A stretch of DNA of 64,000 nucleotides from an uncultured Chlamydiae bacterium (GCA_963696295.1 CAVOJR010000001.1:1440001-1504000); one strand, 5' to 3'; shown: positions 24,526-34,521, counted from the stretch's first letter. Notes: a model not told the origin generated them from the letters alone. A program made the numbers and translations.

Positions 24526-24837
24526 TCACCTTTTAGACTCCCTTTTCCTTTGCCAATAGGCAAACATTCCCCGCTTTGCTGCCTGTCTGCATCTTTCTCG
24601 GCCCTCCTCACTCTTTGCGCCTGTGCTTAATCCGCCGTGCATCCGGCAACGGCCGTTTAGTGGTCGGTCTCGTTTATCCAAAACGGCTTTCGCCTTGCAT
24701 GGGTGCCCATCCCTACATCGAGCGCCACAAAGGGGGCGATTCTTTTTCCACTGGCTTTCAGGCTTCCAGTTTGTTTCATGCGCCATTTCAAGCTTTAAAT
24801 GTCTCTCTAGATCCCACGGCCTATAAACGTAATTCAT
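24526..24837 (-). CDS. HGGxSTG-domain protein
   Basis: CGARCRDGHPC...GRCRMHGGLSTGAKSEEG. Confidence 0.9.
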   Translation of the reverse strand: MNYVYRPWDLERHLKLEMAHETNWKPESQWKKNRPLCGARCRDGHPCKAKAVLDKRDRPLNGRCRMHGGLSTGAKSEEGRERCRQAAKRGMFAYWQRKRESKR

Positions 24838-24889
24838 TTCCTATGCACTCCTTGATACATGCGCAAAACGGTAACAGAAATACGGGCTT

Positions 24890-25129
24890 TCAGTGCCAAT
24901 AAAACCCCGATTCTTCGGCATATTTTTTATACTGCTCATTGGCTTCCTTGTGCTTCACAATCGCCTTCACAGCCTTTAGCTTGGCTTCCTCATCGCCTTT
25001 TTCTTTTGCTCTATGCCAGCGCCTAACAAGATTCATGAGTTTTTCCGAGCGCTCTATTCTAAACTTCTCGGCCTCCTCATAATCGTAAAAATCATACTTT
25101 TTCATATTAACCCCATGACGTGTACGCAA
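24890..25129 (-). CDS. Small hypothetical helical protein
   Basis: Co-oriented within the element operon. Confidence 0.55.
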   Translation of the reverse strand: MRTRHGVNMKKYDFYDYEEAEKFRIERSEKLMNLVRRWHRAKEKGDEEAKLKAVKAIVKHKEANEQYKKYAEESGFYWH

Positions 25130-25141
25130 TAGTGCATAAAT

Positions 25142-25390
25142 TCAACCTCGAAGAGAAGCCTTGCATTGCCGGATATATTCCCGGATTTGCCGGGCCTCTT
25201 CTTTACCCTCTTTTGAAAAAAAGCCGTGCTTTGTCACCGCCTGAATTTGCCTCGCCCGGCCCTCTTTCGTTTTGGCTCCCGCAAAAGCCCCGTGCATCCT
25301 GCACACCTTTTTCCCTCTCACGGCCCAGCTTTTACACTGCTCTCCCGATCTCTTGCTTTTTGCACTGCATCGCATGGGATCACTCTCCAC
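25142..25390 (-). CDS. Second HGGxSTG-like protein
   Basis: RCSAKSKRSGEQC...CRMHGAFAGAKTKEG...KHGFFS. Confidence 0.85.
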   Translation of the reverse strand: MESDPMRCSAKSKRSGEQCKSWAVRGKKVCRMHGAFAGAKTKEGRARQIQAVTKHGFFSKEGKEEARQIREYIRQCKASLRG

Positions 25391-25395
25391 TTTTT

Positions 25396-26037
25396 TTATT
25401 TTCCCCCTCCCCCCACCTGTAAATTGCCGGCAACAACCGCCTGCGCTCCGCTCTCAAGGTTGACGTGCTGGTGGGTGACTGTTACTTTCTGATCACCCCC
25501 TCGCCGATACTTGCTAAGCGCCTCAATCGTTTCATTATGAAGTCGTAAAAGCTTAACAGCGTTCTTCATGTGAAATTCGCCTTGTGGTATCTGTTTAGAA
25601 TACCCAGCATTTGAAAGGCTCATCATCCCTTGGGAAAAAAGAGAATGAGACTGAACGATTAACCGCGCCTCTGTTGCGTCCTGCGGGGGATTATCGGCAA
25701 GAGCTTGAAGAACGATATTATAGCGCTCGGCAGTCGACATATGGCTAGGGAGGGCGCATACTCCTCTCAAAATAATTTCCGCTGCAATCTCGTAATCGGT
25801 TGTTGCTGTTAGGTGTTTAAAAACAACCAAATGGGTTTCAAAGCTCTCTCTGAGTATTGTACAATCCCAGGCGACTTCTCCATCTTTTTCAACAATCCTG
25901 ATCGGGCATTTACCGGATAATATCTTTTTGATGTTCTTCTTCAATTCCGTTTCGATCTCCGCTATTGCCTTTTGTTTTTCTTCAACACAAGCGACTTGAT
26001 TTTGCGCTTCTGCTTTTGCATTTGCCTCTTCGCTCAT
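25396..26037 (-). CDS. Conserved hypothetical protein of a type I recall next to HGGxSTG genes
   Basis: PQDATEARLIVQ...EALSKYRRGGDQKVTVTHQHVNLESGAQAVVAG; GGGAGG RBS before MSEEA at 26037. Confidence 0.7.
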   Translation of the reverse strand: MSEEANAKAEAQNQVACVEEKQKAIAEIETELKKNIKKILSGKCPIRIVEKDGEVAWDCTILRESFETHLVVFKHLTATTDYEIAAEIILRGVCALPSHMSTAERYNIVLQALADNPPQDATEARLIVQSHSLFSQGMMSLSNAGYSKQIPQGEFHMKNAVKLLRLHNETIEALSKYRRGGDQKVTVTHQHVNLESGAQAVVAGNLQVGGGGK

Positions 26038-32040: not shown

Positions 32041-33065
32041 CTTAACAGGATGCTCCCCTCTTCTTTACCTTTCAGATAGTTAAAGCGATTTTCCCAACTT
32101 AATTTGAATGTCTCTCCAATAGTAAGGGGTTTATTTTTTTTATCGTTTGGAAGATTGTTGTACCTAAATCCAAAATAACAACTTTTTATTTCTTGTAAGA
32201 AAAAAGAACTAGTCAATTTGATTATATTTTCATTTGCACCATTTATATAGAGTCGAATGACAAAATCATTTAAAAAAAAATCCATAACCTCTTTGTCGGT
32301 CATCATGGAAATTGTCTGTACTCCCACAATATCTATTTTTATTTTGGCGGCAGTAGATAAAACTATTTCTAGTAATAAAAAAGAATATCTATTTTTACCT
32401 TCGACATCTCTCAATAAAACTTCTCCCATAGGTTTGAGGGGATTCGTGATAAACGTTTTGACTCCTGCTTTACCGGATTCAATCTCAAAAACATTTAACA
32501 AATCTCTGTAGATTTCCCTATGTGTATTATCCATTGAGTGGGATCCAAATTTTCTCATTAAGTTGTGATCGCGAATTTCATCGAGACTTAATTTCGGCTG
32601 ATGATAATGGATCATCTGCCCGACAATTCGGTTTTTTACCGAGCGTTGGAGCGGCTTGGAAGGTTGGGATTCCAATTGATAAAAACCAAATTCATTTTGA
32701 ATTTCCATAGGAAAAATGACGCCTTTACGCAAAGCCCATTGAATCACGTTCTCGGCGGAAAGAAAATATGACTGGTTTTCTCCATAGATTTTCTCTAACC
32801 CGGTTATTTCGGGAAATGTAAACATTTCACGGCTTGTTGCAGCCATTTTCAAGTGACTGAGTATTTTCAGTTCCGTTTTTTTAAATGATTTTTGAGAAAA
32901 CTTCGTTTCAGGGATATAAATTTCATTTCTTCCCTGGATTTCACTTGATAGAGACCTGGTAACCATATTTTTTGGCCATCCAATGAGAATAAAAAAAGCC
33001 TCGTACAACTCCCAATATTTTTGGGATAATATCCAATTCAATTGAGATGATCTTGTTTTACTCAT
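31983..33065 (-). CDS. Hypothetical protein downstream of the integrase; C-terminus replaced by IS5 sequence
   Basis: Overlaps the integrase stop; removing the IS restores the end ...EGSILLSDFFKK*. Confidence 0.7.
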   Translation of the reverse strand: MSKTRSSQLNWILSQKYWELYEAFFILIGWPKNMVTRSLSSEIQGRNEIYIPETKFSQKSFKKTELKILSHLKMAATSREMFTFPEITGLEKIYGENQSYFLSAENVIQWALRKGVIFPMEIQNEFGFYQLESQPSKPLQRSVKNRIVGQMIHYHQPKLSLDEIRDHNLMRKFGSHSMDNTHREIYRDLLNVFEIESGKAGVKTFITNPLKPMGEVLLRDVEGKNRYSFLLLEIVLSTAAKIKIDIVGVQTISMMTDKEVMDFFLNDFVIRLYINGANENIIKLTSSFFLQEIKSCYFGFRYNNLPNDKKNKPLTIGETFKLSWENRFNYLKGKEEGSILLRTVLQNSKFSFLSQFLTCM

Positions 33066-34116
33066 TTATCGCCTCAAAAATCTTTTTATTCATAGATGTC
33101 ACGACATCTTTCCGGTATGCCTCGGACAGATGGCAATAGCGCTTAGTGACTGATTGATAACTTTTATGGCCAAGGAGGTCCGCAACTTCATTCAGGCTTG
33201 AGCCGTTCATCACGCAGTAGCTGGCAAAGCTATGTCGCAGATCATGAAACTTGAAGTCATCGAGTCCCGCTCTCTTCACAGCAACCCTCCAAGCGGACCT
33301 GAAATCAATGGGTTTAGTGGGATCAGTGCCGGGGAAAAGGAGGAAGGAAGTGATCTTTTTCTCTTGAAGTTGGCTCAATACCTTTTGAGCGAGGCCCACA
33401 AGCGGCAAAACCCTAACCTCCCCGTTCTTGGTCTCTCTTAAAACAATTCGCTCTCTTTCAAAGTCAATATCGTTCCAGGTGAGGTTTAAAATTTCAGAGC
33501 GCCGCATCCCCGTTGAGATCCCAAGTATCATTATGGTGAAAAGATGCGGATTCTGACTTGATTGACATTCTTGAATGAGCTTTGCCCTCTCCGCATCATC
33601 CAGGAAGCGCGTTCTACCCTTGGGCAAAGAGGGCTTTGAAACCTTCATCACCGGGTTTATTTCAAGCCATTGCCACTCATTCACACACATTGATAAAATA
33701 TGCGAAAGGGTGGCTAGATACTTTACCACCGTGGCAACCGATCGGGTTTTCCCGTCAACTTCGGCGTGAAGTAGTTTTTCTCTCATTTCTGTAATTAGTG
33801 CGGGGGTAATCTGATTTAATGGGATGCGCCCTAATGATTGTTCCCACCAGTCGATAACATGGTCTCTTCGGCTTTTCGCTATCGTTGGCAGGACATATTT
33901 GCGATAACGCTCGATAGCGTCTGAGAGCGTTTTTTTACGCGATTCCGAGATCAGGCCGTAGCGCCCCTCCCTCATCTCCATCTCGGTTTTTTCCGCCCAT
34001 CTTTTTGCGTCGGTTAATTTCTTGAAAGTTGCCGTGGTCAGAGGATAGTGCCTAATTCTGATCTGCACGTCATAGGTGACCCCTCTCTTCCCTTCTCTTC
34101 TTCGAATTGTTGCCAT
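33058..34116 (-). CDS. Tyrosine recombinase / integrase
   Basis: TGMRRSEIL, ETKNG, FHDLRHSFAS, LLGHKS, RYCHL (R-K-H-R-H-Y). Confidence 0.96.
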   Translation of the reverse strand: MATIRRREGKRGVTYDVQIRIRHYPLTTATFKKLTDAKRWAEKTEMEMREGRYGLISESRKKTLSDAIERYRKYVLPTIAKSRRDHVIDWWEQSLGRIPLNQITPALITEMREKLLHAEVDGKTRSVATVVKYLATLSHILSMCVNEWQWLEINPVMKVSKPSLPKGRTRFLDDAERAKLIQECQSSQNPHLFTIMILGISTGMRRSEILNLTWNDIDFERERIVLRETKNGEVRVLPLVGLAQKVLSQLQEKKITSFLLFPGTDPTKPIDFRSAWRVAVKRAGLDDFKFHDLRHSFASYCVMNGSSLNEVADLLGHKSYQSVTKRYCHLSEAYRKDVVTSMNKKIFEAINE

Positions 34117-34405
34117 ACGTTTTACTCCTTATTTTCGTATGTATCGCATATTAAATGCGATGCATGTTACTCCGGTCTCCCTCAGGAATTCAAGGTCAAT
34201 TGAGGGAGTTTTTGGTAATTTGTCACACTTTTTTCACAGGAGGTTTGATATTCAATTAATTCGTTGATAAATTTGAGGGCTGGGGCGAATTCGCTGCGGA
34301 CTTTTTGTTTGTTATGGAAATTTACTGAATTCATATGTTCCCAATCGTCAATTGTTGTGACAAAAGTGTGAAAAAACAGTGATTTATGGGAATAATCTAA
34401 AAACA

Positions 34406-34442
34406 GAAAACCCCACTAAACCATTCAGTCTAGAGGGGTTAC
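34406..34442 (-). terminator. Probable intrinsic terminator after tRNA-Thr, supplied by the element
   Basis: Minus strand AACCCCTCTAGA-loop-TTTAGTGGGGTT followed by a T-rich run. Confidence 0.5.
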
Positions 34443-34448
34443 ATTGTT

Positions 34449-34521
34449 TGCCCAAAGCCGGAGTCGAACCGACGACCTTCGCATTACGAATGCGCTGCTC
34501 TACCAACTGAGCTATTTAGGC
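34449..34521 (-). tRNA. tRNA-Thr(CGT)
   Basis: GCCTAAATAGCTCAGTTGGTAGAGC...TTCGTAA loop...GGTTCGACTCC...TTTGGGCA; CCA not encoded. Confidence 0.95.

Follow-up and report, generated by a model that had tools for sequence, protein, structure and literature searches.

We analyzed a 64,000-nucleotide stretch of the chromosome of an uncultured Chlamydiae bacterium (GCA_963696295.1, CAVOJR010000001.1:1440001-1504000; hereafter the window), which holds a genetic element integrated at a tRNA-Thr(CGT) gene (Table 1). The 3' half of this tRNA has one second copy in the genome, a direct repeat identical at 46 of 46 bp (BLASTN), and the element therefore spans 20.6 kb from one attachment (att) site to the other (13891-34493). 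Four insertion sequence (IS) copies (two IS1634, one IS3 and one IS5) account for about 6.4 kb of this and leave about 14.2 kb. An earlier interpretation made from the DNA alone (the sequence-only reading) had recognized the tRNA-Thr integration, the four IS copies and a size of about 14 kb without them, all of which we recovered; it had set the limits of the module at 24526..34493, short of the distal att site. G+C content is 0.40-0.46 in the core, 0.38 in the cargo region and 0.51 in the flank.

The core genes all lie on the minus strand, in the order given by the sequence-only reading (open reading frame [ORF] list and sequence): a tyrosine integrase gene, a gene overlapping it, two small genes of excisionase (Xis)/AlpA type, a superfamily 2 (SF2) helicase gene, an AAA_25 helicase gene, a repeat array, a SpoVG-like gene, a conserved hypothetical gene (HYP) and two genes for HGGxSTG proteins (HGG1 and HGG2). 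A 79-aa ORF between the two HGG genes had been overlooked. The integrase is 47% identical to that of a sister element at tRNA-Tyr in the same genome, and the SF2 helicase is 52-57% identical to those of loci L061, L016, L164 and L175. Size and position support the Xis/AlpA labels, whereas the profiles are weak: the 80-aa ORF has no Pfam match (its homologues match HTH_17 at E 0.004-0.07), the 78-aa ORF has a marginal HTH_17 match, and neither matches the AlpA family. The repeat array is real. It follows directly on the AAA_25 gene and, with 12 CGGACA copies within 320 bp, is denser than any other such cluster in the 3.3-Mb chromosome (the runner-up has five), although Tandem Repeats Finder does not list it; this iteron array is likely the replication origin. 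The SpoVG-like label also stood, the six best PDB matches to the predicted fold all being SpoVG (Foldseek probability 0.84-1.00, E 0.03-0.18); the protein likely binds nucleic acid, judging from this model, and has homologues in sister elements and one prophage. Both HGG proteins score above the NF041373 cut-off. As the earlier interpretation had held, none of the element proteins scanned matched capsid, tail, relaxase or type IV secretion system (T4SS) families in general family-library scans.

Table 1. Features of the tRNA-Thr element, from the integrase-proximal to the distal att site (window coordinates).
Feature	Position	Strand	Evidence or remark
tRNA-Thr(CGT), integration target	34448..34522	-	ARAGORN
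att repeat, integrase-proximal, 46 bp, 3' half of tRNA	34448..34493	.	46/46 identical to 13891-13936
Tyrosine integrase, 352 aa	33058..34116	-	PF00589 E 1e-30; phrog_1
int-overlapping gene, 8-nt overlap, no family	31983..33065	-	341 own residues, then IS-coded ones; cluster of 10 homologues
IS5-family element	31007..32041	-	23-bp terminal inverted repeats, 7-bp target duplication
AlpA/excisionase-like, 80 aa	30651..30893	-	label from size, position, weak HTH_17 matches in homologues
Second Xis-like helix-turn-helix (HTH) protein, 78 aa	30017..30253	-	HTH_17 E 0.04; homologues in sister elements
SF2 helicase, 478 aa	28584..30020	-	ResIII/Helicase_C; Walker A, DEAH, SAT, motif VI intact
AAA_25 (RepA-like) helicase, 550 aa	26836..28488	-	AAA_25 E 3.5e-38; N-terminal domain of ~190 aa without family
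Iteron array, 12 CGGACA copies, both orientations	26579..26863	.	contains perfect 19-bp inverted repeat
SpoVG-fold protein, 156 aa	26039..26509	-	no Pfam match; predicted-fold search
HYP, 213 aa	25396..26037	-	helical; long terminal hairpin and conserved low-confidence C-terminal motif; family marker
HGG1, stand-alone HGGxSTG protein, 82 aa	25142..25390	-	corresponds to N-terminal part of phage small terminase
79-aa ORF	24890..25129	-	precedes HGG2 as a conserved partner in minimal elements
HGG2, second stand-alone HGGxSTG protein, 103 aa	24526..24837	-	
IS3-family element, right end approximate	22821..24000	+	splits HAF-repeat cargo gene
Cargo HAF-repeat protein, 348 aa	20505..21551	-	TIGR02913
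Cargo short ankyrin-repeat ORF	20067..20501	-	
IS1634 copy 2	17786..19867	+	transposase in pieces
380-aa ORF of no family	16594..17736	+	between the two IS1634 copies
IS1634 copy 1	14077..16155	+	616-aa transposase; shares 95% identity with copy 2
att repeat, distal end of element	13891..13936	.	BLASTN of tRNA-Thr region against genome

The HGG proteins are related to the small terminase subunit (TerS) of phages. In IMG/VR, 140 stretches matched HGG2; the best 80 were kept, and because one is the L061 contig, 79 were counted. At 55 of these 79 loci the HGG motif opens a protein of 150-224 aa encoded directly before a gene resembling that of the large terminase subunit (TerL, detected with our own profile). 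Twelve of 13 tested proteins that start with the motif match TerS families of PHROG, and the next gene matches TerL in all 13. The 48 stand-alone HGG proteins (64-125 aa) cover columns 13-74 of the 190 TerS columns (HHalign probability 99.4%, E 2e-21). They share with PHROG TerS families 1889 and 509 an N-terminal CxAx..C..CxxHGGxSTG domain and, after it, a KHG-type motif (present in 38 of 48 stand-alone and 25 of 47 phage proteins) but lack the 90-150 C-terminal residues of the phage proteins. By this comparison HGG is homologous to the N-terminus of phage TerS, that is, to its first ~70 residues and not to the whole protein. The sequence-only reading had placed the HGG genes where small-terminase genes usually sit; the slot and the homology bear this out, whereas the short extent of the homology, and the presence of both kinds of end module in L061 (see below), limit it. 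TerS proteins are generally built with an N-terminal DNA-binding domain. On the strength of this build, exemplified by lambda TerS, the HGG domain is predicted to bind DNA, and from its Cys/His pattern we infer that it binds zinc.

HYP marks a family of related elements that recurs in the phylum. A single-query search with HYP yielded 47 relatives, after which a 44-sequence profile was used. This profile matched 86 of 401 genomes of the phylum, distributed over many families, and none of 30 in the family whose genomes are smallest; it also matched 6,383 clusters among 1.84 billion representatives, and HYP as a single query gave two weak, short matches in GTDB contigs. We read 40 HYP loci in 32 genomes, taken from the best-scoring matches on long contigs, so that the counts favor intact cases. 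A short HGG gene follows HYP at 39 of the 40 loci; upstream lie a same-strand integrase gene at 32 and an AlpA-like gene at 29, and TerL was found at none. The usual core thus consists of an integrase gene, a gene abutting it, an AlpA-like gene, a swappable replication module and then the HYP-HGG end. The integrase-adjacent slot is filled for 49 of 53 integrases, with a large gene overlapping or within 30 nt in 46 (12 sequence groups). A repeat derived from the tRNA was found at the far end of 20 of the 28 loci tested, giving att-to-att lengths of 6.8-16.6 kb (median 10.8 kb, taking the nearest copy beyond HYP). The module is thus not a fragment of a larger prophage or of an integrative and conjugative element (ICE), and the satellite-like layout seen by the sequence-only reading is conserved in relatives. 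Family members use many tRNA genes and tmRNA as integration sites; several tRNA sites carry two or three att copies, that is, tandem elements.

The closest gene order was found at the metagenome locus L175, which encodes Xis, SF2 helicase (57% identity), helicase, primase, SpoVG-like protein, HYP (50%) and HGG. A second cassette, the 79-aa ORF with HGG2, ends minimal elements that have no HYP (four of seven sites read), and the window element carries both cassettes; homologues of the 79-aa ORF in L166, L169, L170 and L172 are 34-53% identical to it. In L046 and L048, which come from two families, the elements are 88.8% identical over 6.1 kb and a flanking host gene is 69.5% identical, a single controlled pair whose sequences fit transfer between families. 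The HYP-HGG pair also occurs on a Microvirga plasmid, HYP precedes a short HGG gene at four viral-collection loci, and one of 188 proteins (P0124) is a natural HYP-HGG fusion. The literature searched, which excludes most subscription papers, holds no paper on this element family and none that uses the term HGGxSTG, although some of the islands may be listed in the gene tables of PMC5010888; the chlamydial family is common and apparently undescribed.

HYP itself matches no Pfam, PHROG, NCBIfam or PADLOC family, and PADLOC likewise has no match for HGG or the 79-aa ORF. Its structural model is confident (mean predicted local distance difference test score, pLDDT, 88), except that the conserved last 25 residues are not resolved in the monomer, which would fit an oligomer. 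A programmed -1 frameshift that would join HYP to HGG1 was considered and rejected: in the window a slippery heptamer stands in phase and the -1 frame is open, yet 42 loci are distributed over frames -1/0/+1 as 17/14/11, and the motif is not conserved. Separately, a G-rich tract (25391-25415 in the window) lies within 90 nt before the HGG cysteines in 41 of 50 cases from the window and homologous loci, as against 7.5% of random windows. It remains where HYP ends before the tract; glycine codons and ribosome-binding sites account for part of it, and it is possibly a packaging or regulatory site.

The replication module had been called unusual in the sequence-only reading for combining two helicases with no recognizable primase domain. 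This is true of the window copy but not typical of the family. Profile scans with primase families gave no match to the AAA_25 protein or to its first 190 residues, and primase/helicase PHROGs match it only from residue 148 on. A primase within its N-terminus was considered and discarded, as this part has no Pfam match, no homologue but itself among proteins of 302-963 aa and no usable Atlas match. The helicase part shares 48% identity with the C-terminal half of the primase-helicase of L192, an element that ends in TerS-TerL, and L175 and L016 encode a separate zinc-ribbon/Toprim primase at the point that corresponds to the window's transition from repeat array to SpoVG-like gene. Because these closest relatives possess a primase, we read its absence as a loss in this copy; from the sequences, the simplest reading is what looks like a domain swap plus loss. 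For L021 and L030, Pfam shows a helicase-type gene and no primase family. Several family members have SF2 helicases, and two helicases without a primase are a quirk, not the point of interest. Within one backbone (L021-L060), the replication modules comprise AAA_25, DUF3987 with or without RepB or Toprim primase, DUF5906, DUF927, D5, DnaB-like and separate zinc-ribbon primase types. The AAA_25 N-terminal domain (27919-28488) also occurs in fusion with a D5-type helicase (L017, 32%) and with another ATPase-like protein (L046, L048), and by sequence is a swappable replication domain.

This genome also has two sister elements, one at tRNA-Tyr and one at tRNA-Leu, both ending in TerS-TerL. The one at tRNA-Tyr shares with the window element a related integrase, an int-overlapping gene, AlpA/Xis, an SF2 helicase (49%) and a SpoVG-like protein (38%), and a sister element also encodes a Toprim protein. 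In both (L001, G000:C1:2640419-2658274; L002, 2157070-2174329) large genes, one with LPD38, lie downstream of TerS and TerL; their first ~35 residues match between the elements (78-81%), and the SF2 gene of L001 is split over two frames. In an integrase tree of 40 rows, from which broken or doubtful integrases were left out, the HYP-HGG label changes at least five times, and the TerS-TerL element L001 falls inside a supported clade of five with HYP-HGG elements. The family therefore has one backbone with interchangeable end modules. The window integrase sits on a long branch (0.97) with no supported placement.

TerL-profile matches occur at 65 places in 54 of 380 genomes, the weakest of which may be other ATPases. 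Portal and major capsid genes are present at four of the 20 TerL loci that we read. The other 16 show no head module in the ORF listing (a PHROG scan covered only two L192 proteins), and at 12 of them the stretch read includes an integrase or AlpA-like gene. At three of the four head-module loci (L178, L187, L196 and L197; G149:C102, G251:C19, G014:C65 and G284:C1) TerL is 38-42% identical to that of the sister elements, and by their gene content all four are head modules of tailed phages, candidate helpers. G284:C1, 137 kb long, also carries host-like genes and a SpoVG-like gene; the other three contigs could be mis-binned. Microviridae are not known to have a terminase.

Considering these results together, we favor, by a modest preference, the view that the window element is a shell-less, tRNA-integrated member of a widespread chlamydial family of phage satellites packaged by a tailed helper, and we hold redirection of packaging by HGG to be probable to the same modest degree. 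By analogy with phage-inducible chromosomal islands (PICIs) and PICMIs (phage-inducible chromosomal minimalist islands), infection by the helper would switch on the AlpA/Xis-like genes; the integrase, the int-overlapping gene and AlpA would excise a circle; and the AAA_25 helicase would load at the iterons, aided by the SF2 helicase and the SpoVG-fold protein. Priming could be borrowed from host DnaG or from the Toprim protein of the sister element, as the window copy has no primase. The helper would then package the element, with the stand-alone HGG steering the packaging motor to element DNA. Most speculatively, HGG would recognize DNA and the partner encoded upstream of it (HYP or the 79-aa ORF) would act as a scaffold linking it to a terminase in trans, the resulting two-gene TerS substitute working like the Escherichia coli protein Rpp. 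That HYP and HGG form such a packaging-hijack module, in effect a small terminase divided between two genes whose order is reversed (the scaffold before the zinc-finger-type DNA reader), which would let islands with neither capsid nor terminase use that of a helper phage or sister satellite, is a tentative proposal and rather doubtful.

Several observations weigh against the satellite interpretation. At 24 of the 79 viral HGG loci our profile found no adjoining TerL. The HGG-type TerS family phrog_1889 was found in none of 400 genomes (phrog_509 was not searched), and a phage protein resembling HGG has therefore not been seen in any chlamydial phage. No HGG motif was flagged before TerL at the four head-module loci, two of which have a TerS of the sister type; the candidate helpers thus offer no visible target for Rpp-style mimicry of their own TerS. 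L061 has TerS-TerL and HYP-HGG-HGG together, with TerS-TerL between the SpoVG-like gene and HYP, so that the two modules are not strict alternatives and HGG is no simple TerS replacement. The sequence-only reading had proposed a search for a helper prophage elsewhere in the genome, and none was found: this genome (97% complete) contains two TerL genes only, both in sister elements, and capsid and portal families (HK97 capsid and portal of three families) were not found although controls were detected. HYP has no match in 50,697 phage records, HHalign gives it a probability of 0.1% against both TerS types, and its fold searches returned no match at E<=0.001 in BFVD or the PDB, only generic hairpins (best Z 9.7 over ~62 residues). 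Finally, the window copy carries its four IS insertions, one inside the int-overlapping gene, and no primase.

The foremost alternative is an island of PICMI or I55 type, mobilized by phages and passively packaged, in which HYP-HGG does another job, such as a decoy that jams the terminase of competing phages, or regulation. The genes int, an int-overlapping gene, alpA and primase are the PICMI core, PICMIs are described without packaging genes (PMC10803314), and jumbo phages move islands that have no transfer genes (PMC12595487). The large genes abutting or overlapping most of the 53 integrases, the missing phrog_1889 and the dissimilarity of HYP to TerS all agree with this view. It leaves aside the homology of HGG to a packaging protein, its fixed position as last core gene in two independent cassettes (HYP-HGG1 and 79aa-HGG2) and the fact that the HGG slot is the TerS-TerL slot of related elements, and PADLOC recognizes none of the proteins that would act as decoys; we regard it as unlikely. 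Mobility that depends on phages in some form, either as a satellite or by passive packaging, is by contrast quite likely.

Less probable still is a decaying, immobile remnant of a terminase-carrying satellite or prophage that has lost terS-terL and primase. The terS-terL position in L061, the absence of the zinc-ribbon/Toprim primase gene of L175 and L016, the IS insertions and the long integrase branch would all be expected of it. L175, however, has the same SpoVG-HYP-HGG junction without a terminase, and with TerL at none of the 40 HYP loci the terminase-less form is therefore the normal state; moreover, all core ORFs are open, the helicase motifs are intact and the att repeats are identical, and L021 and L030 also do without a Pfam primase family. 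An integrative mobilizable element (IME) moved in trans by conjugation, with the iteron array or another site as transfer origin, is very improbable: F-type conjugation systems are reported in Protochlamydia and relatives (PMC5010888) and the 135-kb host plasmid bears traces of a sister element, but no relaxase family was matched by the element proteins scanned, the VirB4/TraG-type ATPase PF19044 was not found in the genome (a control was detected), and the TerS-derived genes and TerS-TerL sisters would be left unexplained. Those plasmid traces (G000 C2 ~25081-25567) comprise the tRNA-Leu att site, in a copy of 54 bp, and part of an integrase that resembles the one in the tRNA-Leu element.

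The remaining features of the element are insertions and cargo. IS5, which has a second chromosomal copy at 99.9% identity, entered at the last codons of the int-overlapping gene. IS3 cut a HAF-repeat cargo gene into pieces at 24084-24335 and 21941-22819; such HAF-repeat-like genes recur as cargo directly past the core (20505-24335 in the window; L021, L035, L195) and are also found on the plasmid (G000 C2 20467-21567). The two IS1634 copies have the same orientation and, with the 380-aa ORF between them, resemble a composite transposon (14077-19867). Promoter and terminator scans stayed near the shuffled expectation (26 versus 17.6 +/- 3.5 and 15 versus 12.4 +/- 4.0, respectively). Outside the element, we noted an imperfect palindromic element of ~167 bp resembling a miniature inverted-repeat transposable element (9284-9450; other chromosomal copies up to 93% identity); a 794-aa ORF with a 75-bp tandem repeat (5.4 copies) directly outside the distal att site (11105-13489); and a 2047-aa polyketide-synthase-like ORF (44609-50752) beside chalcone-synthase-like and methyltransferase genes, labels that come from sequence motifs only.

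The presence of HYP in 86 of 401 genomes, the TerL matches in 54 of 380 and the four modules with portal and capsid genes point to gene flow by way of tailed phages in bacteria with an obligate intracellular life. They also give two common, unannotated gene families, HYP and HGGxSTG, a testable role, and offer a marker for satellites whose scores with current profile sets would probably fall short of a call. If the proposal holds, a split-terminase module would define a satellite family in about one-fifth of the sampled genomes of the phylum and far beyond it (6,383 clusters, and copies in alphaproteobacteria), and tailed phages and layered satellites would form an active ecology in obligate intracellular chlamydiae.

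Among known systems, the phages isolated from chlamydiae are small single-stranded DNA Microviridae (PMC5010888), and the main text of a satellite survey does not contain the string 'Chlamyd' (PMC10085698). In Protochlamydia, islands 5.5-15 kb long that carry integrases and lie at tRNA genes are described without being called satellites; one of 15 kb beside tRNA-Thr holds a putative TerL (PMC5010888). The chlamydial TerS-TerL elements share the backbone in many genomes but differ at their end, which is TerS-TerL, in some with large ejection-like genes, instead of HYP-HGG1-79aa-HGG2. Capsid-forming PICIs (cf-PICIs) and prophages differ in having their own capsid, portal and terminase, which we did not find in the window element, and ICEs and IMEs in the relaxase and T4SS families that the scanned proteins did not match, although a bare transfer origin (oriT) may be present. 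The median PICI measures 9.5 kb between the integrase and the last core gene (PMC10085698); the window element resembles PICIs in its integrase, putative AlpA-type regulator, likely replication module and packaging-related gene, all in one direction within ~10 kb, and in having no tail or lysis genes. It has the integrase and the att-bounded chromosomal insertion of a PICI and, in place of a primase-replicase, an AAA_25 helicase with an iteron array, the primase being present in close relatives. [quoted passage not shown] The PICI protein Rpp of E. coli, which redirects packaging, has a TerS-like DNA-binding domain (PMC6739421), a winged helix and not a Cys/His HGGxSTG domain. PICMIs, which integrate next to fis in Vibrionaceae, consist of int, an int-overlapping gene (iolg, of variable family), alpA and primase/helicase, and are described as having neither packaging genes nor capsid remodeling (PMC10803314). 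The chlamydial family has the order int, overlapping gene, alpA, primase (the last missing in the window), the equivalence to iolg being one of slot; it differs in its sites, tRNA-Thr here and many tRNA genes and tmRNA in the family instead of fis, and in the two TerS-derived genes that end the window element. The element works most like a PICI or a PICMI, and we file it as neither, because the capsid-morphogenesis gene and whole TerS of the former, and the fis site and packaging-gene absence of the latter, set both apart from a tRNA-integrated backbone that ends in HYP and HGG.

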